Assembly: GCA_965205485.1 (NCBI GenBank)
Contig: OZ242180.1
Coordinates: 992,001-1,056,000, forward strand
Source: Candidatus Latescibacterota bacterium
GTDB lineage: Bacteria > Latescibacterota > UBA2968 > GCA-2709665
Direction: 5' to 3'
Length of the DNA stretch: 64,000 nucleotides
Part shown: piece by piece, positions 22,397 to 43,768 of the stretch
Numbering within the stretch: the stretch's first letter is position 1
How the letters are laid out: each line of letters begins with the position of its first letter
The notes under the pieces: generated by a model
What the model was told of the DNA's origin: nothing
The model's input: only the letters and a program-made list of their open reading frames with translations
Database searches by the model: none
Translations under genes and position numbers: made by a program

Positions 22397-22420
22397 ATTT
22401 CCTCCTGCCCGCGGTCCCAC

Positions 22421-25400
22421 TCACGGGCGGTCATCCACCCGCCACCGGCTGATCTCCCCCTGGTCCGTCGCCAATACAACGGCGCCGTCCGCCGTCAAGA
22501 TGCAGGTCGGCCTCCCGGTCAACCTGCCCGACAGGACAACCTCGCCGCCGCCGTCTAGGATGACAAGGGTCCCGTCTTCGCAACCCGCCGCCACCCTCGC
22601 GCCGCTCTCCGCCCTAACTGCCGCCATCACCGCCGGCGGAGACGGCAGCCGCCTCGCCCAGAGCTTCTCACATCGGTGATCGAGGGCGAGAATCAGCCCG
22701 CCCGACAACGCGGCGAGGAGCTCCTTTCTTCCGTCGCCATCCAGGTCGAAGACGTCGAAGTCCCGCACGTTGTCCGACGGAATGCGCTGCCCCGGGCCCA
22801 GATGTACGTTGTGCAGGGCGCGCCCGTCCTCCGTCCAGACCGTCACCCGGTTCCAGGTCCCGTTGATCTCGCTGACCACTTCCTTCCGGCCGTCTCCGTC
22901 CAGGTCCTCGTAGAAGATGTGCTTCCGGCTCATACAGGCCCATCCGCCGATACTCGTATTTCCGTCCGGCACGTCGTGGAAGGCGCGCTGCTTCGGGTCC
23001 AGTTCGCGATTGTTCACGACGGCCATCGCGTGGGAATCCGTGGGCTGCCGCGCGATCAGCAGATCGATGCTGCCCTCGGGCCCGTCGATCAGGGCGAACC
23101 GGGAACCCGGGCCCCAGAAAACCGGGAGCCGTTTCACCAGGTTCCCGCTTTCGTCCAAAATCTCGAGCGTGCAGGCGCTGCCGACGAATGCCTGGCTTTT
23201 GCCATCCAGAAAAACGCCGGAATGCAGTCCGTGAACGCCGGCATGTCCCGGCGCCGTCTTGAACCAGTAGGGTTTCGCGGCCCTGAACACGGCGGGGTCT
23301 TCCTCGGAGACGAAGACCCATTTCCGGTCGCCGGAATCCGGATCGAACGCGATGACCCTTTCGTCCTCGCACCCGGCCAGAAGGAGGTCGTGCTCCCCCC
23401 ACCAGTGGAGGAGACGGATGGGACCGTCGGTCGGCAGGGTCCGGAGAATTTCTCCTTCCTGCGACAGCACGTGGACATTCCGGCCTTCGGCCGCACAGAT
23501 CAGCGTTTTCCCGCCGGAATCCGCCGTGACCATGTCCACCACGCCGCCACCCACAGGGGAAGCGAAAACCGGCGATATTGACGGGACATCCGGCATAACG
23601 GGCGATGGCGCGGCCGCGGTTTGCCGTCTGGCATCCCGGCCCTGCTCCAGAAGGCCCGAGAGCCGCGCCGTCACCCTTTCAAGCGCGGCCGCGTCGGGCG
23701 CCGCGCCGGTAATTGAATGCCTCCCCGCGGGGATTCGGATCGTCTCAGGGCCCGGTCCATCCCCACCGTACTCCGGTACGCTTCCGTCGACGCGCACGCC
23801 GCGCGGATCGGAAACGGCCAGCCGGATTTCGGTCTCTTCATCCACAACCAGCTCCAGCACGCCATTGTGAAAGTCCCAGTCGACCTGAACCGGCGCGCTT
23901 GCCCGGAGCAGCGAGGCGCCCAGCGCCGCCGTGGTCAGATTGACGCCGTGCAGATGGTCTCCGGCCAGCACAACCAGATCGCCGTTCAGTCCCTCGTAAT
24001 CTCCCGTGGCGGCCACGGCCGGCTCCGGGAGCGCCAATGCCGCGGCGTTTTCGGCCAACCGCACGCACGCCGTCCCGTCTCCTGCCAGCAGCGAAAACCA
24101 GCATCTCCCGCTTCCCTTCTCCACCGTCCCCCGCCACAGCATGCGGGCCTGGCTTTCCGCAACGGCGGTCTCTACCGGATCCGACATACAGATCCGGGCG
24201 ATATCGCGGATGCGCGCGGCGCCGCCATCCGGCAGTGCCGCCCACGCGCCTTTCCCCTGCCAGAGGAACTCCACCTCCAGTTCCTCGCTGTCCGCCCGGA
24301 AATCCAGACGGTCGACAAACAGCGCGTACCGGCCGACGCGCTGCGCCAGTGTCCTGCGCCAGGCGCAGAACGCCGCCCTAGGTACCTCTGCCGCAACAAC
24401 GGCGGTCCCCCCGACCACGTCCCGGTACTTGAGCGCGGAATCCATCGCCACCACCGGCTCCACCATCCCCTCGGAACGCGTCAACACCTGGTTCAGGTAG
24501 CCTTCCAGCAGCGTTTCTCCATCCAGTCGAAGTTCCAGAACGACAAAGGTGTGATACGCGTTTCGGGACGCGCCGTTCATTCCCTTCACCAGGATGAAAT
24601 CTCCGCTTGAATCCGCTGCGCTCCGAAAACTGCCGAACAGATACGATTCCTCCAGCGGCAGTCCGCTGTGACGGTCCCCCCACAGCGGCTCGGGGATGGG
24701 ATGGATTGACCACCGGTTCACAAGATCCGCGGGCAGGCGGGGCTCGATATCGTCTTCCGGCCAGAAAGACTGCCCCAGCCGGAAGATGTCCAGGTCCATC
24801 CCGGTCCGGCGCAGGTATTCGCGGTAACGGCCGTCTCCGGTCAGATAGGCGGCCTTGTTGAGAAACCCGATGGACGCGGAATTCAGGGCCCAGTCGGGTT
24901 CGCGCCCCGAGGCGAGGATCTCCTGCCCGCGAAGCAGGTTGGCCATGACGCCGTTTTCAATGGGTTTACGGTCGCCCGTAAGCAACATATAGCTCAGAAT
25001 AGGGGCCATTCCCGTATTGTACCAAAACAGATTGTCGTGTTCCCCGTCCACCAGGGCGTGGTGATGCAGTGATGCGAAATGCCATCTGGCGGCCTCCATG
25101 GATTGCTCCCAGAGCGTGCTGGGGTAGTGGCTGTTGAAGTAACGGCCGAGACAGTACAGCGAAATCGCGGACCACTGCCCATGCCGCGACCCCACGCTGT
25201 GCGGGGGATCTCCGAATCCACTCGTGCCGCTACGCACGTTTTCAACGACCCGCCGCCTGGCGCCCTGGTCCTGCGCGTGGCCGAACTGTGCGGCGAACGC
25301 GTTGGTCACACGCAGGCGTTCATCGTCCGTAAACACGGGGCTTTCTTCAATCAGATCCCAGTACAGGATCATCATATGCGCGTTGTAGTGGTAGGGTCCG

Positions 25401-26137
25401 CTCAGCGGCTCGTCCTTGTTTTCGATCCGCTCTCCGTCGATTTCCGTGATCTCCGCCATCGCACGGTCGTCCGGGAAGGCCAGCCGGATGGCTTCCCGCG
25501 CGTGAAAGGCGTCTCCGGTCATGTAGTACATCGCCATTCGCTTGCTGATGCTGTTCCACCCGAAATACCCCACCGAACCGTACCCGGCGGACGCCTCCCA
25601 GGTCTCGAATTCCCGGATGTCCCCGGGAACCTGGATTCCCCGCCCCAGCTCGATCTCCATCAGCCAGCCCAGCGAGAGTTCGCCTTCCCCCGCTTTTGCT
25701 TCCGACACCTTCCCCGCCAGCACGCCGGCCGCCGCTTCCACACCCTCCGCATCGCTTCCGCCCACGAAGATCACATTGTGCCCGTTGCCGAACGGATTGT
25801 GAAGCGACCGGACCTCGTACCCGCCCGGCCCCGGATAGCGCAGGTCCAACAGCGTGTAGTACTGGTTATAGAGCGATTCTATCGTTCGGTTGTCGGACCG
25901 GTTGCCCAGCACGATCAGATGTCCGGAGATGGGCACGGCTCCGGCCGCGGACAGGTCATCGTCAACGGGTACGAGCACGCCGGTCTTCGCCTGAATCGCC
26001 GCCTGAACGCGATTTGCGGCCCCGGCGTAGCGTCCGTCTTCCGGAACCACGATCGTTGCGTTCGGCCGGCCGTTACGGACCAGTTCCGTATCGAGATTCA
26101 GGTCCTTCAGTTCCGAGTACACTGGTGGAATACGCAT
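22421..26137 (-). CDS. Heparinase-like/beta-propeller fusion, divergent paralogue (1238 aa)
   Basis: Shares LKDLxLxT, YPGPGGYEVRSLHNPFGNG and WDLIEESPVFTD with the paralogues. DLDGDG repeats at the C-terminus. GGAGG RBS. Confidence 0.7.
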   Translation of the reverse strand: MRIPPVYSELKDLNLDTELVRNGRPNATIVVPEDGRYAGAANRVQAAIQAKTGVLVPVDDDLSAAGAVPISGHLIVLGNRSDNRTIESLYNQYYTLLDLRYPGPGGYEVRSLHNPFGNGHNVIFVGGSDAEGVEAAAGVLAGKVSEAKAGEGELSLGWLMEIELGRGIQVPGDIREFETWEASAGYGSVGYFGWNSISKRMAMYYMTGDAFHAREAIRLAFPDDRAMAEITEIDGERIENKDEPLSGPYHYNAHMMILYWDLIEESPVFTDDERLRVTNAFAAQFGHAQDQGARRRVVENVRSGTSGFGDPPHSVGSRHGQWSAISLYCLGRYFNSHYPSTLWEQSMEAARWHFASLHHHALVDGEHDNLFWYNTGMAPILSYMLLTGDRKPIENGVMANLLRGQEILASGREPDWALNSASIGFLNKAAYLTGDGRYREYLRRTGMDLDIFRLGQSFWPEDDIEPRLPADLVNRWSIHPIPEPLWGDRHSGLPLEESYLFGSFRSAADSSGDFILVKGMNGASRNAYHTFVVLELRLDGETLLEGYLNQVLTRSEGMVEPVVAMDSALKYRDVVGGTAVVAAEVPRAAFCAWRRTLAQRVGRYALFVDRLDFRADSEELEVEFLWQGKGAWAALPDGGAARIRDIARICMSDPVETAVAESQARMLWRGTVEKGSGRCWFSLLAGDGTACVRLAENAAALALPEPAVAATGDYEGLNGDLVVLAGDHLHGVNLTTAALGASLLRASAPVQVDWDFHNGVLELVVDEETEIRLAVSDPRGVRVDGSVPEYGGDGPGPETIRIPAGRHSITGAAPDAAALERVTARLSGLLEQGRDARRQTAAAPSPVMPDVPSISPVFASPVGGGVVDMVTADSGGKTLICAAEGRNVHVLSQEGEILRTLPTDGPIRLLHWWGEHDLLLAGCEDERVIAFDPDSGDRKWVFVSEEDPAVFRAAKPYWFKTAPGHAGVHGLHSGVFLDGKSQAFVGSACTLEILDESGNLVKRLPVFWGPGSRFALIDGPEGSIDLLIARQPTDSHAMAVVNNRELDPKQRAFHDVPDGNTSIGGWACMSRKHIFYEDLDGDGRKEVVSEINGTWNRVTVWTEDGRALHNVHLGPGQRIPSDNVRDFDVFDLDGDGRKELLAALSGGLILALDHRCEKLWARRLPSPPAVMAAVRAESGARVAAGCEDGTLVILDGGGEVVLSGRLTGRPTCILTADGAVVLATDQGEISRWRVDDRP

Positions 26138-26173: not shown

Positions 26174-28141
26174 TCAATACGCGTGAACTCCGTGACCCTG
26201 ACCAGGGAAAAAGATCACGTCCAGAACGTAACCCAGGGGAACGGCCAACGCGTATCCGACAATGGTCCCGATAAAGAACGGCACGGTCCGCCGATAGAGC
26301 AGCATGCCGCCGGTCTTGATCACGACAAACTTGCAGACCCATGCGGCAAAGATGCTGAAGGCCGCGTGCCTCGTCATGCCGGTGTAGCCCACCGCCAGCC
26401 CGGCCGGGTGCACCGGCCACCAGTTGAACCGGTATCGCAGGAACGCCAGCAGGGCCATCCCCGCGGCGCCGGCCGCAAAGAGGATGAACGACGCCGCGTG
26501 AACGGGATCCGGGCTGCGCATGTGGCTGACGTATCCGTTCACGCTCGGCACGGTTCTCCGGAAGAGCGCGATACTGCCGAAATTGTACGCCCCGCCGGAA
26601 TATCCCCAATAGAGCGTCAGGGCCACGGAAGTCGCGATGCTCGTCAGCAGGCCCAGCCCCACGACCCACCCCAGCTGCTTGCGGTGGCGCTCGACCCGTT
26701 CGGCCAGCTTTGCAATCTGCGCGAAGGCCGGCATGAACAATCCCATGTGGTCGTTTGCGAACACATTGGTAAACGCCATGGCCGTGAGCCCTTGCGCCGG
26801 AATGGACGCCGCGCCCGCGGTGCCCAGAATAAGCCCCTGGGCGCTCTGCGGCAGGTTGACGTAGAGCAGACCGGTCTGCGCCACGATCCGCGCGAGACCC
26901 AGGTAACTGAGGAACAGCAGCACGGTCAACGCCGTGGACAGGAGCAGTCCCATACCGGCCATCTGCAACCAGCAGATGACAAAAGCCACTCCCAGAACCA
27001 GCCCCCACACCGCCCATCGGTACCGCATGAGTTCTCCCGAGTCCTCCGCGCCGTCCGCTCGACCCAGCGCACGGCGAACCACCCGCCTGAGGTGCCCCCG
27101 GGCCGTCCACAGCGCCAGGCCCACGTAACACATCATCGCCCCGCCGCCCTGCCACGACACGTCTCCGCCGGAGAATCCCGCAACCCCCAGTCCAATCCGG
27201 GCGAACGCCGCGATCTCCATAATGTAGAACAGATGAAACAGCCAGATGCTCAGCAGAAGGTCCAGCCCCGTCATGTACGCGAACCCGATGGTATAGAAAT
27301 TGAGGCTCACGTGGACCATCGAGTACTGTGTAAAGTACACCCACAACTGCTGGTGAAACAGACGGATCATCGGGAATCCGTGCACGAAGGCGGGCACCAG
27401 ATTCCAGACCTTGATCGCCAGCGCGACCGACAATCCCGCAATGAACAGCCGGTTCCGCAACAGCCCGGCCCATTCGCCTCTGCCGGCGGCCCCCTCCGCC
27501 ATGTCCGCGGCCACCGAGGGAATGGGATAGGCCAGCCGTTCGTGCCCGGACCACTGCCGGTGAAGCACTGCAACCGTACAGAACGAAACCAGCGCCATAC
27601 CGCCCAGCAGCGCCGTCCACCAGAAGAGGGGAACAGCCCATTCGCCCCAGGGAATCCCCTCCCCGGGGGGAAGACCCTCGAAGAGCCATCTCATGGCTCC
27701 CTGCGCGTTGGACGGCACCATCCATCCGGGCACGTGGGGCAGGAGGTACTCTCCCCACTGGTTCTCCGGCGTGGCGAGATAATGCGGGATGGCCAGCATG
27801 CCGATCCAGGTCGTGGACAGACCGAACGTCGGCACCATACCCCCCGCCAGGCCCGCGCACAGCGCCACCAGGAGTTCAGGGCCGGACATCGCCAATCTGG
27901 GAGCGAACCGCCGGAGGACCGGAGTCGCCAGGACGAGGATCAGGAACGGAACGAACACGCCCATGGGGAAATGGGTCCGGTTCAGCCATGATCCCCGGAT
28001 GATATAGAGCGAGTGCAGGCTCCAGAAATTGTGCAGGGCGGCAATTCCCAGGCCCAGGCTCAGGGCGCGCGCCGAAACCCCGCGTATCGCCAATTTCGCG
28101 CCGGCTATCCCGGCTTCGCGTTGCCCGGCAGGACTCGCCAT
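26174..28141 (-). CDS. DUF6785/DUF6784-family polytopic membrane protein (putative transporter)
   Basis: Hydrophobic helices throughout. Motifs YLATPENQW, QW..HERL.YP, RIVAQTG, WWPVHPAG, PFFIG.I.G. Confidence 0.75.
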   Translation of the reverse strand: MASPAGQREAGIAGAKLAIRGVSARALSLGLGIAALHNFWSLHSLYIIRGSWLNRTHFPMGVFVPFLILVLATPVLRRFAPRLAMSGPELLVALCAGLAGGMVPTFGLSTTWIGMLAIPHYLATPENQWGEYLLPHVPGWMVPSNAQGAMRWLFEGLPPGEGIPWGEWAVPLFWWTALLGGMALVSFCTVAVLHRQWSGHERLAYPIPSVAADMAEGAAGRGEWAGLLRNRLFIAGLSVALAIKVWNLVPAFVHGFPMIRLFHQQLWVYFTQYSMVHVSLNFYTIGFAYMTGLDLLLSIWLFHLFYIMEIAAFARIGLGVAGFSGGDVSWQGGGAMMCYVGLALWTARGHLRRVVRRALGRADGAEDSGELMRYRWAVWGLVLGVAFVICWLQMAGMGLLLSTALTVLLFLSYLGLARIVAQTGLLYVNLPQSAQGLILGTAGAASIPAQGLTAMAFTNVFANDHMGLFMPAFAQIAKLAERVERHRKQLGWVVGLGLLTSIATSVALTLYWGYSGGAYNFGSIALFRRTVPSVNGYVSHMRSPDPVHAASFILFAAGAAGMALLAFLRYRFNWWPVHPAGLAVGYTGMTRHAAFSIFAAWVCKFVVIKTGGMLLYRRTVPFFIGTIVGYALAVPLGYVLDVIFFPGQGHGVHAY

Positions 28142-28166: not shown

Positions 28167-31100
28167 TCAGGACGCGACCTCCTGGACGGGCGACGTCTCC
28201 AGTTCCGCCTCGCCCTGCCGCGCATAGTCCGTCTTCGTTTCCGGAGGCATTGTCTTCCACACCAGAAAGAGCTTGCGAAGGTCGTTCAGAAAGCCCCTGT
28301 TCACGCGTTGCCACGAGTTCACGTCTCCGCTCAGGCGACGGATACGGACCTCTATGCGGTATATATCGTGTTCTCCCGTGGGAATCGCATTCATCTGGAC
28401 GTCCTGGCTGATGCCCAGATCGTACGGCGCCAGCCACATCCGCAGCGCGATCCTGTACCCCGTGCCGGCCGGAAGCGGATCGGACCCGAAACGTACGTCC
28501 CGCGAAACGAACCGGCCCAGGGAACCCTCGCCGAATGACTCGAAACTCCGAAAGAGATAGGTGTACATCCCCAGGGCTTCCGATCCCGCCAGGGTAAACG
28601 GAAAGTCGAAAGTCCAGTCGTCCCCATCCGGATTCGGAAACTGCCACCGCCGCGTCACGTCCGGTACGGACATCTGTTCGGCCTTCCTGGCCGGATAGAG
28701 GGTGGACAGGAACACCGCCAGCATCACAAGCAGCGTGGAAGAAACCGCCGAAAGGGAAGAGTAGTTCAACGACAGCCCGCCCAGCGCTCCCTGCTCGTAC
28801 AGGACCAGCGCCAGCGCCTGGCCGATCAAATAGCCGAACGCCGCTCCCAGCGTGGCGAACACGGCCGCTTCAGCAAGAAAGAGCGCGGATATGTGGCTTG
28901 GCGCCAGGCCCACCGCCGAGTAGACACCGATTTCGCGGAATCTTTCATATACGGCGCCCATCATCGTGTTCAGGACGATGAGCGAGGCGATCAGCAGCGG
29001 GATGAAGAGATTCGCGATACCGGAAAGGGAGGTGGTGCCGATGGAGCTGTATACGGTCACCTCGTCGTCGATCCCGACGAACATCGTCAGAGCAACCCGC
29101 GACATGAAGTCTTCGATCTGCCGGCGGACGTCCTGGCTGGGATTGCCCTGTGCGTCTTTGAAATCGGTGATCGCGATCGACCGGAGGGTACCCCCTATTT
29201 CGATGACGAACTCGTACGGGAGCAGCGCCGTATTGCTCGTGTCCAGGTGAATGAACGCCTCGATCGGCTCAGCTCCCATCAACCTCGGGTCCTGGCTCAG
29301 GTTGCGCCAGTCGCTCGTTCCCGCGGTCTCCATCGTCGTGTCGATGGGCGTCGGGCGTTCGTCATCCATATCCGCGAGCCTGTCCACGGCCCGGGAGTCC
29401 AGAATCCCGACGACGGCCAGCTCCACCCCCAACATACGCACCCGCGCCCGGCCGGCTTCCACGTCCGCGCCGGCGATCCCAACGAGGTCCGCCAGTTCGC
29501 CCGGCAGGATGACCGCGTGCCGTTCCCCCTCCCGGAACCAGCGGCCGGCCGTCAGCAGTCCGTCCATCCCCAGCACGTGCGGTTCCACCGGCGTCACGCC
29601 CAGCAACCCGTTCGCGAAACTCCGCCGTCCGCTTTCGGGTTCCTCAAAGTCGATATACGCTCGCTCGCCTCTCTTTTCTGAAATGTAAAACGCCCGGGGC
29701 GCAACCCGGGCGAAACCGCCGAAATGACTCTGGATGTACGTGAGCGCGGAGGGCTGCATTCCCCTCCAGTTCCGGTCTCTCACCAGCGCTCCCTGGTAGG
29801 GCGGACGGTTGTCCCTGGGCAACTTGTAGAAGCGCAGGTACGTCTGGACCGACGTAAACGAGAGCACCGTGAAGGTCAGCAAGGTCAGCGTGACCGCCGT
29901 GAGCCCGCTTCGGAGCGGGCGTTTTCGCAAATTCGATACGCCCAGCGTAAACGCCACGATCATCGCGGAGATCCGTCCCACGTCCTCCTCGTACACACCC
30001 GTTGCGGACTGCTTCATTCGTCGTACCTGTTCCGCGAACCTGGACACCACGATCACCATTGCCACCCCGCCCAGACACAGGATCACAAACGCGAGAAAGA
30101 TGATGTAAGGAGAACCGGACAGTTGAAACGCAGGATGCACCCACCGCAGGGCCAGGAACATGACAATGAGAATCGCGGCGAATCCGACAATACGCCTCTG
30201 GACGTCTGGAAACCCGAAAAACAGCCGCTCGCAAAAGAACGAGAACGGCAACAGCAGGACGAAATAGAAGATGACGCCGCGGACCGTGTCGTTGGCCGTC
30301 TCCTTCACCTCGGGGTAGCCGCGCGCCTCGAGCCCCCAGCCCTCTCTGGCCGATGCAATGAACCGGTCGTACCGCAGGTTCTTCAGGTGGCCTTCGGCTT
30401 CGAGCAGAGACGCGCGCGCGCGGTCGTGAAGCCCGGAAAGCCTCTGGTTTTCCACGCCGTACCGAGCCAGTTGCTTCATCCGGACGTCATCTACGATCCA
30501 CATATCCCGTGCCGCGCGGTAGGAAGGCAGGGTAATCGCATTCCCGTCCGGTTCGTACCCGGCTCCCATGGACCGGATTACCGTCTCCGCGTTCACCTGC
30601 CGCGGCGCAACGGGATCGGACAACAGGTCTTCCGGAGCGTTGATGAGCAAATACTTGATTCCGAATAGCCCGCTGCTCATCAGGATCTTGATCCGCTCGC
30701 CGGGAGGAGCGAACGCCACGGACGCCTGGGTGACCTTTCCCTCCTTCCGTCCCTGGTTGGCCACGTAACGAAAGCCATATTCTATCGGTTCACTGTTGTC
30801 CCTTCCCAGCACCTTCATATGGTCGAGCACGGACAGATAGCTGGAATCCACAATCTCGAACAGGCTCAGCGACCGGCACCTGAACAGCACGCCCATCATC
30901 TCGTTGTCCCACCACCCGTATCCCTGAACCAGGGGATACTTCCCGTTTCTTCCATCCGACCCGGCGCCGTCTATTCCCATATCCGGCGCCGAGACGATCC
31001 GTCCCTCGGCATCGAGTTCGTATGCCAGAACGTGATTCGAAAAACGGTTTCTGACAATGTCGAATTCAAACCGGCCGGTCTTTGCGACCACCTTCCTGGA

Positions 31101-32879
31101 ACCGTACAACGCCCCTCTGGAGGCCGGGCCTTCGTAAATCGGGCCTCTCGTGGTCTGCGTGACCATCAGCGTCCGTACGCCTGCAAGGCTGTTGGGGCCC
31201 GGTTGCTTGTACGTCACCAGTGCCCCCGGGACCGGCACCCTGGGAATCGCGAAGTCCACGTCCCGGTCGAACCAGAGAATCCGCCCGGACAGGCGGTGGC
31301 CGCGGTCCATCAGCCGAAGCTGGGTCTCGCGGAAAAAGCCCGGGTCGTTACCCGCCCGGATCATCATTGCAGCCACCGACCTCACCTGGTCGGTCAGGCG
31401 GTCGAAGGCCATGGCCTCGGGAACATCGAGCGGCGTGTCAGTCCGGACGCGACCGTCGTACAGGGTCACCAGGGTCATCGCCTCCTGCCCGACGAATACG
31501 GCAGCCTCGCTCTCCAGGGCCAGCGGGACCGGCATATATGACGTCCAAGGCCGCTTGGCCGGGGCCACCACGTCCACGTAGCGCTCTTCATCCGGAAAGA
31601 GCGCCCGGGTGTACTCGCGGAACCGGTGCGAATACGGCGTCAGCAGATTCTTCAGGTATTCGTCAGTCCCCTTGCGGGCGTTGTAGAAGGTCCCCATCGC
31701 GAATCCGCCCACCTGTCTGCTGCGGCTGGACAGGTCCAGCCCCACGAACAGCCTGTAGTCGATCCGATCGCCATCGGGGATCCGGTCCCGGAAGTAATCG
31801 CTTCGGCGGGAATGTCTGAAGAGGAAATCGTTGATTCCCGTCAGCCCCTCGAAGTGCGCCGACGTCGCCAGAAAGAGGAAGGAGTGCCTGGAACCGTGCC
31901 GCTGCAGCGAACGGATCACCTCGAGCAGGGCGGCGGCTCCCGATGCGCTCTCGGCGCCGGGGGCGAGCGCGGGCACCACGGACATGGCGTCATAGTAGGC
32001 GCCAACCACAATCAGCCTGTCCTTCCACCTGGCGCCCGTTCCTCCCGGAATGCGCTCGTCCGATCCGGGCAGATATCCGAAGACATTGGCCGACTTCACC
32101 GTCTGCCACTCCATGCGGGCGGTGAGATGCACGTTGACATCTCCGCGTTCGACGTCCTTCAGAAGGCGATGCGCATCCTCCCGGCTCACCCAGAACCGGG
32201 GCACGTTCACGGGCACCTCCAGAAACTTGTCCTCCGCCTCCCCGCGGGTCACGTTTCCGTCGTCGAAGAACAGAATGGCCTTCGCGCCGAGGGTCATCGC
32301 GTTCAGGTAATTCTGTCCACAGCCGAAGTCCATCAGCACGACGCTTCCGTCCACGACCGACCCGTTGAAATCCGAGAAATCCCCGCGCCGTCCGTAGATC
32401 AAATGCCCCTCGACGCCTCCGGCCGGGAGCGACGGCGTCCGGACGTCATTCGGCCAGAGGCCATAGATGGGTATCTCCTCGCCCGTGGCAGTCACCTTCA
32501 GAACGCCGCCCCGGTCCACCGGCACGGTCACGTCGAAAGCCTCCGTGGTGACCCGCTCCAGACCCAGCGCCTCGAACTGCGATCTGATGTATTCCCGCGC
32601 CTGCCGTTCGCCGTCGTATCCCACCACGCGCGACGGCATCCGGGTCAGGGCCGCCACGTGGGTACGGACGTCGTCTTCCGCAATCTCATCCACAATTCGC
32701 CGTACCGCCCGGTCCGCGGCCGAAAGGTCTCCCCGGACCTGTTCGGGCGGCGGCAACTGCCTGATTTCGAACGTATCCCTGATCACGTCGGACACATTCT
32801 CGGGGTCGAATACCACCACGAGTGCGAGGACGCCAAGCGTCAACAGAACGAGCAGTGCCCTTTTTATTCCGTTGATCAT
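28167..32879 (-). CDS. 1570-aa fusion: TM anchor, PA-containing degenerate M28-like domain, TM bundle, MacB-like periplasmic domain, FtsX permease, C-terminal domain
   Basis: SRVVGYDG, PA insert (GHLIYGRRG..VVLMDFG), AYYD..APGAESASG, NLRKRPLRSGLT, ERFREIGVYSAVGL..I..LFLAEA, STLYPARKA. Confidence 0.8.
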   Translation of the reverse strand: MINGIKRALLVLLTLGVLALVVVFDPENVSDVIRDTFEIRQLPPPEQVRGDLSAADRAVRRIVDEIAEDDVRTHVAALTRMPSRVVGYDGERQAREYIRSQFEALGLERVTTEAFDVTVPVDRGGVLKVTATGEEIPIYGLWPNDVRTPSLPAGGVEGHLIYGRRGDFSDFNGSVVDGSVVLMDFGCGQNYLNAMTLGAKAILFFDDGNVTRGEAEDKFLEVPVNVPRFWVSREDAHRLLKDVERGDVNVHLTARMEWQTVKSANVFGYLPGSDERIPGGTGARWKDRLIVVGAYYDAMSVVPALAPGAESASGAAALLEVIRSLQRHGSRHSFLFLATSAHFEGLTGINDFLFRHSRRSDYFRDRIPDGDRIDYRLFVGLDLSSRSRQVGGFAMGTFYNARKGTDEYLKNLLTPYSHRFREYTRALFPDEERYVDVVAPAKRPWTSYMPVPLALESEAAVFVGQEAMTLVTLYDGRVRTDTPLDVPEAMAFDRLTDQVRSVAAMMIRAGNDPGFFRETQLRLMDRGHRLSGRILWFDRDVDFAIPRVPVPGALVTYKQPGPNSLAGVRTLMVTQTTRGPIYEGPASRGALYGSRKVVAKTGRFEFDIVRNRFSNHVLAYELDAEGRIVSAPDMGIDGAGSDGRNGKYPLVQGYGWWDNEMMGVLFRCRSLSLFEIVDSSYLSVLDHMKVLGRDNSEPIEYGFRYVANQGRKEGKVTQASVAFAPPGERIKILMSSGLFGIKYLLINAPEDLLSDPVAPRQVNAETVIRSMGAGYEPDGNAITLPSYRAARDMWIVDDVRMKQLARYGVENQRLSGLHDRARASLLEAEGHLKNLRYDRFIASAREGWGLEARGYPEVKETANDTVRGVIFYFVLLLPFSFFCERLFFGFPDVQRRIVGFAAILIVMFLALRWVHPAFQLSGSPYIIFLAFVILCLGGVAMVIVVSRFAEQVRRMKQSATGVYEEDVGRISAMIVAFTLGVSNLRKRPLRSGLTAVTLTLLTFTVLSFTSVQTYLRFYKLPRDNRPPYQGALVRDRNWRGMQPSALTYIQSHFGGFARVAPRAFYISEKRGERAYIDFEEPESGRRSFANGLLGVTPVEPHVLGMDGLLTAGRWFREGERHAVILPGELADLVGIAGADVEAGRARVRMLGVELAVVGILDSRAVDRLADMDDERPTPIDTTMETAGTSDWRNLSQDPRLMGAEPIEAFIHLDTSNTALLPYEFVIEIGGTLRSIAITDFKDAQGNPSQDVRRQIEDFMSRVALTMFVGIDDEVTVYSSIGTTSLSGIANLFIPLLIASLIVLNTMMGAVYERFREIGVYSAVGLAPSHISALFLAEAAVFATLGAAFGYLIGQALALVLYEQGALGGLSLNYSSLSAVSSTLLVMLAVFLSTLYPARKAEQMSVPDVTRRWQFPNPDGDDWTFDFPFTLAGSEALGMYTYLFRSFESFGEGSLGRFVSRDVRFGSDPLPAGTGYRIALRMWLAPYDLGISQDVQMNAIPTGEHDIYRIEVRIRRLSGDVNSWQRVNRGFLNDLRKLFLVWKTMPPETKTDYARQGEAELETSPVQEVAS

Positions 32880-35083: not shown

Positions 35084-38000
35084 TCAGCCTCGTCGCGTCA
35101 GGCATTCGCTCCCGGAATTCGGAATCGAAATCCGATCGCCGGGTTTGAAGTCCAGGACTTCGAACCGGCTGCCCGGCCGCAGCCCTGCAACCGATTCCAG
35201 CCGCATCTTCTTGAATGCAAGCAGTTCGACGATCCGCGATGCGAAGCCGCCGTCCTCCGTCCGCAGCAGCTTTCCGCTGTATTCGCCCTTGTCCCCGCTG
35301 TTGTTGAAACCCCAGGCAAAGGCGAGCGGCACGTCGCAGACCAGAACGTCCGGTGCCTCGACCGAGACAACCGTCCCCCGCGCCAGCCGGGGATCGCCCT
35401 GCTGCAGGAGGAGGCGAGCTTTATTCCCTTCCTTTGCGGCGGCAACCCGATATGCGGATCTGTGAGAATACGGTGTTTCCGCTTCGCCAGATTCCACCCG
35501 GCACAGGCGTCCCTCCAGCGGCATCCCGTCCGGGAGACACCGGTCGATCGTCACGGATTCTCCGTCGGCATCCAGTCCCACGATCCGGGCGTCGAAACCT
35601 TTCCGCGAGAGCCGCGTTTCGGTGTCGCCATACCGCAGTCCCGTTCCTTCCACAAGGTGAAGCATCACCTTTCCATTCCGTTCGCGAACGACGCCGAACC
35701 GACCTTCGAGCGCGATCGGTACCCCATCGCCATCCCGGATTTCCATTCTGCCGCGCCTCGAAAACAGATGCGTGTCCCTCCGGCCGTCCGCCAGTTCGAC
35801 CCGCACGGCGGCGTTACCTGTTTCTTCCTCGCGCGCAAGCACCCTAACGCCCGTCACGTTGCTCGAACCGGAAAACGCTTCAAATACACTGACGAAAAGG
35901 CTCTTCAGATCTTCGCCTTCCCTCCGGACGATCAGTCGATGGATCTGCTGGTCACCTCGCAGATCGGGACCTTTCGCCGCCACCAGCGTCGCCGACGGAT
36001 CTGCGGGAAACCAGACGCCGAACCGGGTGTCCCGCGCGTCTCCGAACCGCCAATGAGCGTACGCGTCCCGATCCAGCGGGGCGGTTTTGACGTCGTGGAT
36101 GAACGCGTACCCGTTCCCCGGAGGCGGCAGCCATCCGTAGGGCAACGGGCTTCCGTCCGGTGCGGCCACGCCCTGAATGCGATCGTTCGGGCCGATCCGT
36201 TCCCCCCAGCTTTTGCCAGGCGCGTTCGCCTCTTCGGAACCGTCCGCGGTCCCCAGCGCCGCCAGTGTCCAGACCCCGGGGCGCGCCTCCGGCGACACGC
36301 CCTCCAGCGAATAAGACCCGGAGTCCTCTTCGAAAAACCTGGGCCCGTTCATCGCGTAGTCGTGAATCCGGCCTCCGGCCACAATAAAGAGGTCAAGCGT
36401 GTAGGACGTGTCCTTGTCGATATCGCAGAAGATCAGCGCGCGGCGGTACTCGGTTGCGCCCTGGTGGATCCGTGACAATGGCGCGGAATATTCCGCGACC
36501 TTGACATCGCCCAGGTCCTCGAAGGCGACCAGGTCCGCGCTCGGCACGAATTCGTAGCCCTGAGACGTGGGAATGTCCTCGTCCACGGTCACCATCGCGT
36601 GGGAGATCGCCCGCATGCCCCATCCCTTGTGCACGTGTGAGCCGGCCAGTGCGTATCCCACGTCTTCGATGACTGTCCTGCCCTTATCGTACAGAAAAAC
36701 CGCCAGTTGGTCGTCCTGCGAAAGCAGATTCGCGCCCCCGCGCACAATCAGCGCGCGGGACCGGTCGCCTGTCCCGCTTCGCAGGACCACCACGCCCTTG
36801 TGTCCTGCGAAGGAAGAGGCGGATTGTGGCTCGGCCCGATCTTCTCCGGCTGGTCCGGGTTCCGAATTGAACAGCGCCCACGTGCCATTGCGGACGTTTT
36901 CCGCAGCGCCATCCGACAGATCCAGCATCAGTTCCCTCGCCCTCAACCTTGTTTGCGCGTCGTCGCTCCTGACGTAGAGTCGCTCCAGCAGAGACCAGTG
37001 CGTGGGCATCACCTGCCGTTCCGAAGCCGGTCGATAACCGGGGAGCGCGTTCGTATTTCCATAGGAGGGGATGCGCCCGCACGCCCGGGTCAGCTCCGGG
37101 TAATCCAGGCACAGCCGGACGAGGCGAGGGTGATCGAAGGCGTTTTTCATCCCCACCAGCGCATCGGCCTCAGGGAAATCTTCACCTGAGGGGTACTTGA
37201 CGGGAGCGTAGTGGTACAGCAATTCCGCTACGTCCTGCATCAGCGTACCGGAGAAATACGCGTACATTTCGGAGTTTTCGTAGTACCCCCCGTCCCTGCC
37301 GACCACATTATCCATAAAGGCGCGGGACGCGCCGCCCGCCCAGGTGATGAAATCGGGTCTGTCCGTGGCCAGTCCAATCGATAGCAGCGCCCGGAATCCG
37401 TCCAGTTCGTGATTCTGAAAATGCGTCAGATTTCCCCCGCGCAGATTGTACCCGCCGCCTTCGGTCATCACGTAATCTTCCAGCATGCCCTCGGCGATAT
37501 TCTCGCGGATGCTGACGTTGTCATTCCCCCGCGTGGGCGAAACCTCGTCCATTTCCGGAAGACCGGAGATCAGATCGTACGCCTGCATGTCCACGAAACG
37601 CTGCCGGTTGACGTGACAGGTCTCCGCGTGCATGCGACCCATCTCCCGCTCCTGACCCTCCGGAATGTCCAGCGGACCGATCGTTGTGGGCGCCAGCGTG
37701 GCCAGCGCATCGTAGATCAACAGCGCCTTTTCGCCGAACCGGGTCTCGCCGGTGACCGCATATGCAAGGGCCAGATTCAGAAGCGCGTTGTCCGTGGGGC
37801 CGCCCGACCCGTAGGAATAAGTGCTGAGCATACTGACAATAAAGCTGTTCCACACGGGCACCGGCGCGAACCATTTCCCCTCGTAATAGAAACCGTGCCC
37901 TTCGTCTCGAAACGGAGATCCCTTGCGGTTCTCGGGATACGCTCGCCCGCACGCCTCGCAATAAGCCTTTTCGGGCTGCGACACGTCGCACCGCCAGGCC

Positions 38001-38245
38001 GCCTTGCAGCAGGGACTCCCGTTGCGCCCGCTGCAGAAAATCGCCCCCCGGTCCGGAACCAGCGCGTGAATCTCCTCATCGGATACCCGCACCCACTTCT
38101 CCGCCACCGCGCTGATCCGCGCCCACTCTCTCTCGGCCCACGCCTGGGTACGGATGTTTTCCCTCGCACGGCGAATCGCATCCACGGTGTACCAGATGGA
38201 CCGTCCCGGCCGAGGGACGGGCGCCTTCGGATCGATAGACAACAT
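35084..38245 (-). CDS. Heparinase II/III family protein with an N-terminal Cys cluster (putative Zn ribbon)
   Basis: ATG 38245 with GGAGGTGA. C-x7-CC...C...CEAC cluster; QNH, DGGYYENSEMY, SHAMVTVD. No signal peptide. Confidence 0.7.
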   Translation of the reverse strand: MLSIDPKAPVPRPGRSIWYTVDAIRRARENIRTQAWAEREWARISAVAEKWVRVSDEEIHALVPDRGAIFCSGRNGSPCCKAAWRCDVSQPEKAYCEACGRAYPENRKGSPFRDEGHGFYYEGKWFAPVPVWNSFIVSMLSTYSYGSGGPTDNALLNLALAYAVTGETRFGEKALLIYDALATLAPTTIGPLDIPEGQEREMGRMHAETCHVNRQRFVDMQAYDLISGLPEMDEVSPTRGNDNVSIRENIAEGMLEDYVMTEGGGYNLRGGNLTHFQNHELDGFRALLSIGLATDRPDFITWAGGASRAFMDNVVGRDGGYYENSEMYAYFSGTLMQDVAELLYHYAPVKYPSGEDFPEADALVGMKNAFDHPRLVRLCLDYPELTRACGRIPSYGNTNALPGYRPASERQVMPTHWSLLERLYVRSDDAQTRLRARELMLDLSDGAAENVRNGTWALFNSEPGPAGEDRAEPQSASSFAGHKGVVVLRSGTGDRSRALIVRGGANLLSQDDQLAVFLYDKGRTVIEDVGYALAGSHVHKGWGMRAISHAMVTVDEDIPTSQGYEFVPSADLVAFEDLGDVKVAEYSAPLSRIHQGATEYRRALIFCDIDKDTSYTLDLFIVAGGRIHDYAMNGPRFFEEDSGSYSLEGVSPEARPGVWTLAALGTADGSEEANAPGKSWGERIGPNDRIQGVAAPDGSPLPYGWLPPPGNGYAFIHDVKTAPLDRDAYAHWRFGDARDTRFGVWFPADPSATLVAAKGPDLRGDQQIHRLIVRREGEDLKSLFVSVFEAFSGSSNVTGVRVLAREEETGNAAVRVELADGRRDTHLFSRRGRMEIRDGDGVPIALEGRFGVVRERNGKVMLHLVEGTGLRYGDTETRLSRKGFDARIVGLDADGESVTIDRCLPDGMPLEGRLCRVESGEAETPYSHRSAYRVAAAKEGNKARLLLQQGDPRLARGTVVSVEAPDVLVCDVPLAFAWGFNNSGDKGEYSGKLLRTEDGGFASRIVELLAFKKMRLESVAGLRPGSRFEVLDFKPGDRISIPNSGSECLTRRG

Positions 38246-38289
38246 AGGCGTCACCTCCGAGCGTATTTCCCCAATGTCTCGAGGATTAC

Positions 38290-39340: not shown

Positions 39341-41308
39341 CTACTGCGTCGGCGCGACGACCTTTACGAGCGTGCTCTCCAGGCCCCGCAGGACCAGATC
39401 CACTTCCTTCCGGACCGAGGTGGACGGCCGCGGGCCTCGACCCGGGCCGGGCGGGACCCCCGGACCTCCAGGCGGTGCAAAGGGCATATCGAACGTCAGC
39501 AAGGCTTCTATCACGACGTTGTCATCCTCGCTATTGACGTCGTTAAAGACTTCCTCGAGTGTCTGCTCGACAGGGAAACGGCCGAATCCGGGTCCGCCAC
39601 CCGCCCCCAGTTCCGCGGCCGAACCCAGGGCGAGACTGTAGACACCCGGCGGAAACGATTCGGGAACGCCGAGCCTCAGATCGATGTCCCGATCAATCCG
39701 GCGCCCCACCCGCAACAGTGCGGTAACGTCCAGCGTGTCCCCGGGGCTGGCGACCGTGTCCGCGTTCACTTCGACGATCCTGGCATAACGGGGCTCTGCG
39801 ATCAACTCAACGTCAACGCTGGCTTCCGTCACCTTTAAAGCGTAATCGTCTCTCTCCGTCAGCAGGGCCAGTGAGAAGGTCAGGTGGGAGGTCGCATTTC
39901 TGATCAGGGAAAGGAGCCGGCCTTCCGGCGAAGCGTACAGACGGGTTCGCGCGAGCGTGGAATCGGTAACGTCGAAGGCAATTTCCGCCGTAACGCGGAT
40001 GCTGTGGTCCGGATCGTTCTCAACCCTGCCCAGAAGCGGTCTGAATAACGCGCCGGCGACCAGATCGACAGACATGTCCGGGCTCACGCCAACCGTGGGC
40101 ATCCTATGCAGGAGTTCCTCTTCTGCGCCCGAAGGAAACGTATACACGCTTCTGATCGGAACCAGTTCCGGCCCTTCGCCCAGTATTCCCCTCACCGCGG
40201 GAATGCGGTCTTCGGTGAGCGTGCCGCGTACCGTCGGGTTCAGCGTCGCGAATTTGTACGGTGCAGACAGATTGGAGATTTCTCCCAGCACCACCGCCTC
40301 GATGATAGGCAGCGAAACCGGGCCGGCGTCATCCATGGAATGTCCGAATCCATAGACCCGGTCGCCATCGACGAAGGAGATGGTCCCGATGGCGCCGAGT
40401 GTCAGTTCGCCAAGCAGTACACCAACCGCCAGCGGCCGGCCCGGCGCGAAGCTGGTCTGGCGCTGCGTGGTCAGACCGGCGGCAACCGCGTTGTCCAGAA
40501 TCGATGGACGCCCTTCCGGGGTCAGCAGGCCACGATTGAGACCTGTACTAACGAGCGGAACGTCCAGAGGCACGATGCTGTTCTCACCCCACGTGGCCGC
40601 GCGTTTGGCCAGTGGAACCGTTCCCCGTTCGCCGATAACCCATTCCATGGGCGTGGCGAAAAAATAGTAAGGCGGGTTGTCCTGGGCTGTAAAACCGAAC
40701 GCGATCGCGCCCCAGGCGCCCTCGGGTGAAAAAATAGGGGAACCGCTCATGCCCTTGGCAATGCCCCCCAGGGCCACCAGTACGGAATCTGAGGCTTCCA
40801 CCATGTAGACCGGCATGGGCGGCAGGAAATCGTCGACCACCTGGATGAACGTCATCTCCAGGTCGACGAGCCGACCCTTGTCGAATTCGGTCCGCATGAA
40901 GACACGCGTGCCTGCGGGCGTGGATCGGACCGATTCGATCGGCACGATCGTCGAAAGGTCCCAGGGCAGGAGCATCCCGTAAGAAAAGTCCTTCCCGAAA
41001 TTTTCTGAAAAGGAAACAAAGTCGGAAAACCCGATTTCCCCGTCTCCATTCAGGTCGAACCGGGCCTCATATTCGTCATCGCCTTCGCTTTGTCCGAATT
41101 TTGCCGCGAACTGCGAAAAATCGTTAAAATCGACCGTCCCGTCGCCGTCGAAGTCCGGCAGGAATGTCGAGTCCCCCTCGTAGGAATTGACGGTGTGCCC
41201 TTGCAACGTCGTCTGATCGGCATGCGCGTCCGAACCTGCGGCGATGAACGAAACGAATACCAGCGACGTTACAATGCAAGCAAAGGAGACGTTTTCTCTT
41301 GATGTCAT
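39341..41308 (-). CDS. Secreted SpoIVB-like (S55) peptidase with an N-terminal dockerin/EF-hand module
   Basis: Signal peptide ending AHA. DFDGDGTVDFNDF...FDLNGDGEIGFSDF; GIAKGMSGSP; AIGT....GDRVYGFGH. Confidence 0.75.
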   Translation of the reverse strand: MTSRENVSFACIVTSLVFVSFIAAGSDAHADQTTLQGHTVNSYEGDSTFLPDFDGDGTVDFNDFSQFAAKFGQSEGDDEYEARFDLNGDGEIGFSDFVSFSENFGKDFSYGMLLPWDLSTIVPIESVRSTPAGTRVFMRTEFDKGRLVDLEMTFIQVVDDFLPPMPVYMVEASDSVLVALGGIAKGMSGSPIFSPEGAWGAIAFGFTAQDNPPYYFFATPMEWVIGERGTVPLAKRAATWGENSIVPLDVPLVSTGLNRGLLTPEGRPSILDNAVAAGLTTQRQTSFAPGRPLAVGVLLGELTLGAIGTISFVDGDRVYGFGHSMDDAGPVSLPIIEAVVLGEISNLSAPYKFATLNPTVRGTLTEDRIPAVRGILGEGPELVPIRSVYTFPSGAEEELLHRMPTVGVSPDMSVDLVAGALFRPLLGRVENDPDHSIRVTAEIAFDVTDSTLARTRLYASPEGRLLSLIRNATSHLTFSLALLTERDDYALKVTEASVDVELIAEPRYARIVEVNADTVASPGDTLDVTALLRVGRRIDRDIDLRLGVPESFPPGVYSLALGSAAELGAGGGPGFGRFPVEQTLEEVFNDVNSEDDNVVIEALLTFDMPFAPPGGPGVPPGPGRGPRPSTSVRKEVDLVLRGLESTLVKVVAPTQ

Positions 41309-41487: not shown

Positions 41488-42732
41488 TCAGGGCTTCCGC
41501 AGCAGGACGATCCGATTCGTGTTCGTTCCCTTTTTCAGGTTATCCACGCCCCAGCAGTTCGACGTCTTTGTGAAGACCTGGTCGTTTACAAGTACCATGA
41601 GCGGTTCTAGCCCCGCTTCCGCCGCGGCCGGGACTACAAGCGTTTCGAGGAGAATTTTCCCGCCGCGGACTTCCCCTACCTCGAAAGCGACATAGCCCCC
41701 GGGTTTGAGAACTCTCTTTAATTCAACAAACACGCTCTTCATGGCCGCCTGCCATTCCAGCGGCTTCTTAAAGTGCCATATGTCGACGGTCCGCGGGTCG
41801 ATGCCGTTGAACCAGCACCGCAGCCAGTTGTCCGCTTGGTAATCCACCACGTCCAGAAACGGCGGCGACGTCACGACGAGGCTGACCGAATCGCTATCGA
41901 TTCCCGGCGTGTTGTCGGACGATCCGGTGTTGAGCAATGCGTTTTTCGACGCCCCGTGAAGTCGTTCGAATTCAAAAACTTCAAGTTTGCTCAGGAGCGA
42001 TCCGGACTTCTTCAGAATCGACACCCGAACGTCCCGATGAGGAGGCGTCTGACTTCGACTGCTATTGATACCCCGCTGCCGCTCTACGGTGACCGCCTGG
42101 TTCGGAGGCAGCGTATAGACGGAAAAGAATCCGGGGGAATGTCCCGTCAGCCGGTTGGTCGCCACCATCCGGATCCACCGGTCGACCGCATCCAGACCGC
42201 CGTCTTCCTGTTTCCCGATCAGGAAGTTCCGAAGGTTGGTAATCTGACGCAGCGTGTTCGGATGATAGAACGTAAGCAGGTCGTCCCGCGTCTCGCAGTC
42301 GCCTTCGAGAGGCAGTTCCCTCAGTCGTCCCGAAACGGCCGCAAGGGGCGGGGGATCCAGCCGCGGCGCCACGAGTATCTCGCTCAGCGGATTGACGTCC
42401 GTCCCAATCGGGGTACGCCCCAGCAAAACCGCCTCGATAGCGGTCGTCCCGCGGCCCAGAAACGGATCGTAGACGGCGTCGCCCGGGCTGGTCAGCCGCT
42501 CAATGAAAAAACGTGGCAACTGGGGCTTGAAGCAGGCGCGGTACGAAATTTCGTGGAGCGAGTGCGCCGCTCTTTGTCGCGATGTCCAGAACTCATTCAC
42601 ATAGACCGGAATATTGAAATCCGGAACCGGGAATTCCAGGATTGCCGTTTCCTTGTGAAAATCGTCGAAACACACGATATCGCCGAGGAATTCCTCATAC
42701 GACAGGGGTCGCATTGACGTATCGATGCGCAT
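41488..42732 (-). CDS. Orphan amino-DNA methyltransferase (SPPF motif, probably m4C)
   Basis: Motif I DPFLGRGTT precedes motif IV VTSPPF; RVLKPGG follows. ATG 42732 lies 1 nt after the upstream stop. Confidence 0.8.
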   Translation of the reverse strand: MRIDTSMRPLSYEEFLGDIVCFDDFHKETAILEFPVPDFNIPVYVNEFWTSRQRAAHSLHEISYRACFKPQLPRFFIERLTSPGDAVYDPFLGRGTTAIEAVLLGRTPIGTDVNPLSEILVAPRLDPPPLAAVSGRLRELPLEGDCETRDDLLTFYHPNTLRQITNLRNFLIGKQEDGGLDAVDRWIRMVATNRLTGHSPGFFSVYTLPPNQAVTVERQRGINSSRSQTPPHRDVRVSILKKSGSLLSKLEVFEFERLHGASKNALLNTGSSDNTPGIDSDSVSLVVTSPPFLDVVDYQADNWLRCWFNGIDPRTVDIWHFKKPLEWQAAMKSVFVELKRVLKPGGYVAFEVGEVRGGKILLETLVVPAAAEAGLEPLMVLVNDQVFTKTSNCWGVDNLKKGTNTNRIVLLRKP

Positions 42733-42733
42733 A

Positions 42734-43768
42734 CTACTCCCCTTCGGATACCAGCCGGCGGCGGCGGCGGGCCAGCTCCCGCATGTCCGTGACCGTATCG
42801 GACTCATCCACGATCTCCCGGCCCAGGATCTCTTCCAGCACGTCTTCCAGCGTCAGGACTCCGGCCAGTCCGCCGTATTCGTCGATGACCGCAAAGAGAT
42901 GTTGCCGCATTTCGAGGAACATCTGCAGAACGCGGTCCAGCGCCACTGTCTCCGCAACGAAGTGAACCGGATGCATCAATTCAGATATGGGTCTCTGCCC
43001 GTGACCCTCCGCCAGCGCGTTCAGCACGTCGCGGCGCATCACGACGCCAATGACGTCCTCGAAGCCCTCCTCATAGACGGGAACCCTGCTGTGCTGCCAG
43101 GTACCGGCTTCCTTCTGCGCCTGCTCCACGGTCAGACCCGCGCTCAGCGCGAATACGACCGTCCGCGGCGTCATCACGTCTTTCGCCGTCTTGCGTTTGA
43201 GCGAGAGAATATTCTGCATCACGCGGGCCTCGTGCGGCTCGATCGCGCCTGCTTCTCTCCCCATCCGCGCCATTGAGGAGATTTCTTCTTCGGAAACCTC
43301 GTCGGACGTCCGACCCTTCGAGAACGCCCTGGTCACAAGCCGGCATGTCTCGACAAACGGGTACATTGCCAGGACAAGAAATCGAAGCGGTATCGCGATC
43401 AGACTCGCCAGGGACCGGCTGTAGACCACGCCGACGGTCTTGGGAATAACCTCCGACAGGAGCAGGACCGAAAGTGTGATGAATATCGTAAAATAGTGTT
43501 CCCACTGCGCGCCGTAGACCTTTATGAACGCCGCGCCTGCCAGGAACGCGCCGCCGGTATTGGCAATCGTATTCAGGGAGAGGATGGCCGAGATGGGACG
43601 GTCGACGTTGCGCATCCGCAGGTCCTTCAGGATACGGCCAGAGACTGTTCCTTTCTGCGAAAGGCTTTCGACGTAGCTTACCGGAACGGCGTAGAGAACG
43701 GCTTCAGCGAGAGAGCACGTCGCGGAAACGAATATAACGGCGCATACGAATATTATGAGCTCGACCAC
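42734..43768 (-). CDS. CNNM (DUF21) + CBS domain protein (CorC/HlyC family)
   Basis: SLAEA, LNTIANT, SEVIPK, VMTPR, HSRVPVY, VIDEYGG..G.LTLEDVLEEILG.EI.DESD. GGAGGT RBS. Confidence 0.92.
   Translation of the reverse strand: MVELIIFVCAVIFVSATCSLAEAVLYAVPVSYVESLSQKGTVSGRILKDLRMRNVDRPISAILSLNTIANTGGAFLAGAAFIKVYGAQWEHYFTIFITLSVLLLSEVIPKTVGVVYSRSLASLIAIPLRFLVLAMYPFVETCRLVTRAFSKGRTSDEVSEEEISSMARMGREAGAIEPHEARVMQNILSLKRKTAKDVMTPRTVVFALSAGLTVEQAQKEAGTWQHSRVPVYEEGFEDVIGVVMRRDVLNALAEGHGQRPISELMHPVHFVAETVALDRVLQMFLEMRQHLFAVIDEYGGLAGVLTLEDVLEEILGREIVDESDTVTDMRELARRRRRLVSEGE

Follow-up and report, generated by a model that had tools for sequence, protein, structure and literature searches.

The question raised by this locus is what an M28 peptidase fold with an altered metal site does at the head of a bacterial permease. 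The locus lies in a 64,000-nucleotide stretch (the window; positions 992,001 to 1,056,000 of contig OZ242180.1, assembly GCA_965205485.1) of a Candidatus Latescibacterota bacterium, and its central gene encodes a membrane protein of 1570 amino acids, hereafter the large subunit. A first-pass annotation, made from the letters alone, had read two motifs of this protein, IVVGAYYDAMSVVPALAPGAESASGAAALLE and FLATSAHFEGL, as a pseudo-peptidase site of the nicastrin/nicalin kind, used for substrate recognition together with polytopic partners. Both motifs do exist (Table 1). The answer that we favor, and hold only tentatively, is that the head is a non-proteolytic, PA-M28-derived ligand-capture device, carried by the large subunit of a type VII ATP-binding cassette (ABC) machine that works with carriers of the OPT fold.

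The AlphaFold2 (AF2) model of the head had a predicted local distance difference test (pLDDT) score of 97. Active PA-M28 enzymes were the top matches of the head both by sequence (E 4e-22) and by fold (Z about 30), with Z 30.7 for BSAP (6hc6) and Z 30.3, at a root mean square deviation (rmsd) of 2.6, for the Aeromonas/Vibrio aminopeptidase AAP (1amp). Further fold matches were the transferrin receptor (Z 25-26) and GPAA1 (7w72_A, Z 19.6), and ESM Atlas returned ordinary M28 clusters. The zinc ligands of AAP are His97, Asp117, Glu152, Asp179 and His256, as listed in Table 1 of PMC7522609. In the alignment of the head with AAP, Tyr295 stands at His97, His342-Phe343 at Glu151-Glu152, Asp382 at Asp179, and Asp481 at His256. 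The GA loop is one residue shorter than that of AAP at 116-118, and the counterpart of Asp117 is Ser311 by phmmer and Glu310 by hhalign. Since Tyr295, Glu310/Ser311, Phe343, and Asp481 occupy ligand positions, the canonical dizinc site is, as judged from these alignments, absent from the head, as the first-pass annotation had proposed. Its His-to-Tyr change and its loss of the EE pair both stood, while its Asp-to-Ser change, owing to the one-residue deletion, holds in only one of the two registers.

The annotation had also implied a dead site, and this went too far. Among 124 close rows, D297, H342, D382, R477, D481, T482, P483, and D485 were invariant. In a broader set of 151 rows, made up of the query and the top 150 among 1944 representatives clustered at 50%, conservation was still high for D297 (149/151), an acidic residue at 310 (129/150), D382 (135/141), E458 (109/137), R477 (130/136), D481 (108/135), and D485 (128/135). 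The catalytic Glu151 was replaced by His342 in 144 of 148 representatives, position 343 was mostly Phe, His, or Tyr, position 481 mostly Asp, and position 295 was Tyr or Phe in 133 of 151. A regular expression for the pocket pattern gave four matches in the six-frame translation of the host genome, which is also the number of large-subunit paralogues, so that the pattern is not a product of chance. Conservation of this order is too high for a decayed pseudo-enzyme, a candidate that we therefore rejected. The residue pattern indicates a pocket rebuilt rather than decayed, with Asp297, Glu310, His342, Asp382, Arg477, and Asp485 near-invariant and, going by their M28 positions, presumably clustered in space.

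A second branch of the family was reached from a divergent member, P0262, which matched 865 long proteins. The best 120 of these were examined; they had the architecture of the large subunit, and 13 of the 15 taxon labels among them were Bathyarchaeia, Thermoproteota, or Nitrososphaerota. In this archaeal-type set (121 rows), His295 was found in 68 rows and Glu or Asp at 311 in 113, while Glu343 and His481 occurred in one row each. His295, acidic 311, and Asp382 came together in 55 of the 121 rows, and His342 joined them in 42. Because of this triad, one metal site may survive in part of the archaeal-type branch. In unrooted trees the family formed one clade (SH-aLRT 99-100), inside which the sampled bacterial-type members formed another (100). 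No family member was found in the viral contigs searched, and the plasmids searched gave only four weak matches, all to ordinary M28 proteins. Four members (P0125, P0127, P0132, and P0124) are extended at the N terminus by a long stretch of bacterial Ig-like (Big_5) domains, which brings them to as many as 3053 amino acids.

Is the family then specifically related to nicalin or nicastrin? The nicalin motif given in the annotation was accurate, since 7tm3_7 and 6w6l_5 both read AHYDAFGVAPWLS[HL]GADSNGSG. An exact APGAESA, which we take to be the nicastrin motif, was present in 44 of 121 close relatives, in 15 of 148 representatives, and in a single one of 115 archaeal-type proteins, and 33 of 100 canonical M28 cores had APGAxD; given this distribution, the match is largely a subgroup trait built on a common M28 motif. 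For nicalin, the family profiles gave E values of 2e-10 and 1e-12; for nicastrin, 0.04 and 0.002. Our nicalin set held seven eukaryotic nicalins from metagenomes (from 17 pattern matches, 10 of which were other genes or short pieces) and four fused ones, and the alignment of its profile with the family spanned 298 columns and took in the PA region. The loop that runs from the HxD Asp to GA, 11 residues long with a V/A-P-x-L pattern, was alike in the family and in nicalin, and none of 100 canonical M28 cores had a loop of this length.

Scores against ordinary enzymes nevertheless pointed the other way. A profile of 62 canonical M28 sequences scored 149 against nicalin (E 8.9e-21), above the 143 of the family profile (E 2e-16), and the family scored 195 against canonical M28s, again above its score with nicalin. 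At E<=0.1, Pfam Nicastrin (PF05450) matched all 7 nicalins and 34 of 62 canonical M28s, compared to 7 of 44 family members in one set and 8 of 32 in another, and it had no match in the 1570-residue protein. On a nicalin hidden Markov model (HMM), canonical HxDHIG-type enzymes reached up to 44 bits and overlapped with the family; with the 10-residue loop masked, family medians fell from 31-38 to 18-23 bits, compared to 21-30 for canonical enzymes. As masking this one loop removes it, the extra likeness to nicalin is, at the level of sequence, confined to these 10 residues. An apparent lead of the family on the nicalin model was due to a control drawn from a single phylum (48 canonical M28s) and to a badly cut nicalin row, and wider controls removed most of it.

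Nor did the trees, in which rows were thinned by hand and nicalins but no nicastrins were included, place nicalin. Trees constrained to unite nicalin with the family were 7.6 and 2.4 log-likelihood units above a quick free search (P in the approximately unbiased test [p-AU] of 0.73 with 56 rows and 0.63 with 50 rows), but a constraint uniting nicalin with the canonical HxDHIG group was equally unrejected (p 0.44). Nicalin was nested in the family in none of three free trees and lacks the family's one-residue deletion in the GA loop. Neither nicastrin nor nicalin was among the best 50 or so matches of each of three fold searches, where active M28s came first, and a search of long proteins with the nicalin profile returned the four fused nicalins and no family member, which is weak evidence. 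Overall, the fold, profile, and Pfam Nicastrin tests favor ordinary M28s, and in most tests the family is no closer to nicastrin or nicalin than ordinary M28 enzymes are; the specific kinship suggested by the annotation is thus unsupported. The family is a distant homologue of nicalin and nicastrin through the M28 clan. By analogy, it is plausibly also a functional analogue of theirs, and the head may work as nicastrin does, as a peptidase-derived receptor. One eukaryotic nicalin in our collection (L058:136-1629) has an intact GADDNASG and keeps the equivalents of His97, Asp117, and Asp179, and is possibly a one-metal nicalin.

The remainder of the large subunit is that of an ABC permease. Pfam recognized PA (166-239), Peptidase_M28 (284-418), and FtsX (1292-1401) domains, and by hydropathy an N-terminal anchor is followed by a group of three helices at 865-950, a single helix at 993-1011, and a further three at 1286-1397. 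The family profile matched MacB (5lil) at 3.9e-20, and FtsX was found in 31 and MacB_PCD in 20 of 32 family members, corresponding to a four-helix MacB-type transmembrane domain with a periplasmic core domain. From hydropathy parity with the topology of MacB, we infer that the head is extracytoplasmic. The host genome encodes four paralogues of the large subunit, the other three being 40-56% identical to the window copy, and close relatives are labelled as Latescibacterota or Gemmatimonadota metagenome-assembled genomes. The features of the locus are collected in Table 1.

Table 1. Coordinates in the window of the large subunit, its parts, and the two adjoining genes (aa, amino acids; TM, transmembrane)
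Feature	Position	Strand	Basis
1570-aa protein (open reading frame bearing both motifs): N-terminal signal anchor, PA-M28-fold head, unannotated middle, three extra TM helices, MacB/FtsX-type membrane module, C-terminal tail	28167..32879	minus	
PA-M28-fold head (aa 51-526)	31300..32729	minus	AF2 + structure matches
Motif 1 (aa 290-320; Tyr295 at His97, Asp297, 10-residue loop, Glu310/Ser311 around Asp117)	31920..32012	minus	
Motif 2 (aa 336-346; His342 at Glu151, Phe343 at Glu152)	31842..31874	minus	
GLDLSS (aa 380-385; Asp382 at Asp179 ligand position, retained)	31725..31742	minus	
Second half of the putatively rebuilt pocket: Glu458, Arg477, DTPxD (Asp481 at His256, Asp485)	31425..31514	minus	
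FtsX-like C-terminal TM domain (aa 1292-1401)	28677..29006	minus	Pfam E 1e-14
Upstream DUF6785+DUF6784 polytopic protein, 662 aa	32899..34887	minus	Pfam
Downstream DUF6785+DUF6784 polytopic protein, 655 aa, predicted OPT/Yellow-Stripe fold	26174..28141	minus	Pfam + predicted fold

Both genes adjoining the large subunit encode proteins with DUF6785 and DUF6784, the upstream one being 36% identical to the downstream one. The model of the downstream protein folds like barley YS1 of the OPT family (7wsr; Foldseek E 2e-7), with Z 23.9 and rmsd 3.9 over 548 residues and the next match at Z 5.4, while identity to OPT/YSL proteins was 11-13%, no Pfam OPT match was found in either neighbour, and ESM Atlas gave only sub-0.9 peptide-transporter leads for DUF6785. 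A second type of neighbour, OPT-like and without Pfam match, proved homologous to DUF6785 (hhalign 93%), and neither profile had a PDB match by sequence. One or both types were present in 28 of 29 loci picked across the phylum, the single miss being a short contig, and in P0160 the large subunit is fused to DUF6785+DUF6784; the annotation's suggestion of polytopic partners is thus borne out at the genomic level. A complex prediction for residues 1275-1570 with the downstream protein scored 0.02, the mark being 0.32, which speaks neither for nor against an association. The host genome (G000:C1) has 23 DUF6785-family genes, several of which stand as tandem pairs, but only 4 genes for the large subunit and 2 for OPT-like proteins. 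Some OPT-like partners contain a large inserted soluble domain, namely, a regulator-propeller repeat in L128:4842-7718 and an insert in L026:11900-14317. Known OPT members transport peptides or iron-siderophores and iron chelates, and their genes often lie beside peptidases, according to PMC3061005.

In five genomes with a single family match (G003, G005, G011, G016, and G035, four of them chosen for a PqqD match on the same contig), the gene order was a tetratricopeptide repeat (TPR) protein, the large subunit, an OPT-like protein, a protein of about 293 amino acids, a PqqD-like protein, a small FtsX protein of 228 amino acids, and a LolD/MacB-like ATPase, with DUF6785 upstream of this operon in three of the five. 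No ATPase gene lies beside the window copy, and counterparts of these operon genes are elsewhere in the host genome: the small FtsX and ATPase genes at C1:2728321-2729931, the PqqD-like and 293-residue genes near C1:4241300-4242760, and a second ATPase gene adjoining paralogue D. The ATPases of the operon and of the host genome are 62% identical to each other, and a system without an ATPase, a possibility that we considered, is ruled out by their presence in both. Since its motor and PqqD-like genes lie elsewhere, the window copy is probably one of several interchangeable sets of large subunit and carrier that share a common motor. Of 151 genomes of the phylum, 138 had the family, with as many as 12 matches in a genome; the other 13, all of one taxonomic family (f10), gave no match. 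The PqqD-like gene was essentially single-copy and present in 130 of the 151, that is, in 129 of the 138 family-positive genomes and as one weak match in f10, related genomes not being independent counts. The operon protein of about 293-323 amino acids (L128:3864-4832) has no Pfam or NCBIfam match and adjoins the PqqD-like gene in seven other loci. In two genomes (L133:1043-5173 and L140:2602-6732), the genes for the OPT-like protein and the large subunit are immediately preceded by ExbB/ExbD-like and PPIC-type peptidyl-prolyl isomerase (PPIase) genes, and the operon of paralogue D continues into bacterial microcompartment shell genes (L026:14408-17329).

In the mechanism that we tentatively propose, the outward-facing head would capture a ligand for the carrier beside it. 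The large subunit would pair with the 228-residue small FtsX and a dimer of the LolD/MacB-type ATPase, both encoded elsewhere in the genome. The Asp/Glu/His/Arg pocket, containing no more than one metal, would hold an oligomeric solute by a polar end; a peptide seems most likely, and an oligosaccharide possible, the latter remaining a candidate because lyase-like genes surround the window copy. ATP-driven motion of the MacB module would then free the solute or pass it to the OPT-fold carrier, which would take it across the membrane. The head would thus act in the manner of nicastrin or the transferrin receptor, in which a peptidase fold serves as a receptor.

Several points weigh against this proposal. 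To our knowledge, no type VII ABC system is an importer, the known ones being exporters or mechanotransducers, and we know of no OPT carrier that requires an ATPase. The five operon genomes come from only three families, and, with 23 DUF6785 genes to 4 large subunits in the host genome, many DUF6785 proteins must do without a partner of their own. The invariant acidic/His constellation, finally, suits an enzyme as well as a receptor.

The module is surrounded by four large proteins of lyase-like or beta-propeller character (window 18800-26137, 35084-38254, and 43878-46691, minus strand) with Heparinase II/III-like, DUF4962, and carrageenase-type propeller traits, a hint of glycan catabolism for the window copy. 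In a secreted-looking protein (39341-41308, minus), a dockerin/EF-hand-like repeat is accompanied by a weak match to SpoIVB peptidase S55, and a similar repeat ends the 43878-46691 protein. The open reading frame at 41488-42807 (minus) contains motifs that we take to resemble those of a DNA methyltransferase.

Three other explanations, which overlap in part with the ligand-capture reading, have to be weighed. The head could be a rewired active enzyme, namely, a single-metal hydrolase, cyclase, or peptide ligase with His342 as the general base, acting on cargo that crosses the envelope. Glutaminyl cyclase and GPAA1 are precedents inside the M28 fold, His342 falls at Glu151, for which PDB 2anp is, by its title, a functional E151H mutant of AAP, hhalign sets Glu310 at Asp117, and single-zinc M28 enzymes do exist (PMC7522609); the archaeal-type rows with the His295, acidic 311, and Asp382 triad, with or without His342, fit as well. 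We nevertheless consider such an enzyme unlikely, given that, in the window protein and most bacterial members, site 1 is Tyr or Phe and the Glu152 and His256 ligands are gone. Moreover, the single-zinc glutaminyl cyclase described in PMC7522609 uses exactly sites 2, 3, and 5, two of which are absent here, and the triad is incomplete in 66 of 121 archaeal-type rows, as would suit a metal that is not essential. Somewhat less credible to us is a machine for export and maturation, in which the PqqD-like protein delivers ribosomal peptides or leaders, the OPT-fold and ABC modules export them, and the head receives or proofreads them. The single-copy PqqD-family gene and the LolD/MacB-like ATPase gene inside the operon, the typically outward action of type VII ABCs, and the TPR and PPIase genes near some copies would all fit, but the loci read held no conserved precursor peptide or modifying enzyme, the great expansion of carriers next to catabolic (lyase-like and oxidoreductase) genes suits uptake, and the characterized OPT/YSL proteins are importers in the account of PMC3061005.

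The remaining reading, which we regard as improbable, makes the family a prokaryotic sister group, or the source, of the ectodomain that nicalin and nicastrin would have inherited from archaea. The loop D-x5-P-x-L-x2-GA, of a length seen in no canonical core, is common to both, archaeal-type members read HYDSF-x3-P-x-L-x-PGA, the PA-like insert of nicalin aligns too, the family is present in Bathyarchaeia and Thermoproteota, the constrained trees are not rejected, and the Glu152/His256 side was lost first in both lineages. All of this is countered by the drop of the family scores, once the loop is masked, to 18-23 bits against 21-30 for canonical enzymes, by the preference of both nicalin and Pfam Nicastrin for canonical M28s, by the equally acceptable grouping of nicalin with the HxDHIG enzymes, by the deletion that nicalin lacks, by its absence from the family clade in the free trees, and by the faint matches to nicastrin. 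More doubtful again is a broader version, in which an ancient eight-gene envelope machine of TACK archaea and several bacterial phyla, uniting an ATP-driven type VII mechanotransducer, OPT-fold carriers, and a PqqD-like peptide chaperone in a single complex, carries a head at the first stage of de-catalysis, with one metal site remaining in archaea and none in bacteria, that is sister to nicalin and nicastrin; if true, it would give the lumenal subunits of BOS and gamma-secretase an origin in a transport receptor.

We found no description of the system, or of DUF6785, in the full-text literature outside subscription journals and supplements. In this uncultured phylum the system is near-universal and has undergone strong expansion, and its range extends to Bathyarchaeia and Thermoproteota. 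If the ligand-capture reading is true, primary (ABC) and secondary (OPT) transporters, types not known to cooperate, would be linked, and DUF6785 gains a predicted fold. The family would also provide a natural gradation between a possible one-metal site in the archaeal type and an apparently metal-free pocket in the bacterial type, making directly testable the route from peptidase to receptor also taken by nicastrin, nicalin, and the transferrin receptor.

Compared to known systems, the head shares its fold and PA insertion with the PA-M28 aminopeptidases, that is, BSAP/YwaD of B. subtilis (6hc6), AM-1 of Aneurinibacillus (2ek8), and PaAP of P. aeruginosa, and its fold with AAP (1amp), but it has His97, Glu151, Glu152, and His256 replaced, a one-residue deletion, and a fused membrane module of 1000 residues. 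Transferrin receptor 1 and GPAA1 likewise combine a PA-M28 or M28 fold and altered metal sites with a role as receptor or in a membrane complex, and, unlike the large subunit, are eukaryotic and without an ABC module. The position of His342 is presumably that of nicastrin Glu333. A receptor role via Glu333 has been proposed for nicastrin (PMC2647162). Nicalin, in the BOS complex (PMC7505659, PMC11186639, bioRxiv 10.1101/2023.11.28.569054), and nicastrin, in gamma-secretase, are described as extracytoplasmic M28 folds without a dizinc site in multipass assemblies (bioRxiv 10.1101/2023.11.28.569054, PMC2647162), as the head would be; they are single-pass proteins with APH-1/TMEM147-type partners, whereas the head forms one polypeptide with a MacB-type module and has partners with a predicted OPT fold. 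The downstream DUF6785 model resembles barley YS1 (7wsr), and an ABC tie was not found described for OPT/YSL members. With type VII ABC systems (MacB, LolCDE/LolF, YtrF, and FtsEX) the large subunit shares the MacB-type transmembrane module, the periplasmic core, and a LolD/MacB-like ATPase, but it falls below all NCBIfam cut-offs and differs from them in an N-terminal extension of 850 residues with the M28-fold head and three extra helices, in a short second FtsX subunit without a large periplasmic domain, and in its OPT-fold and PqqD-like partners.

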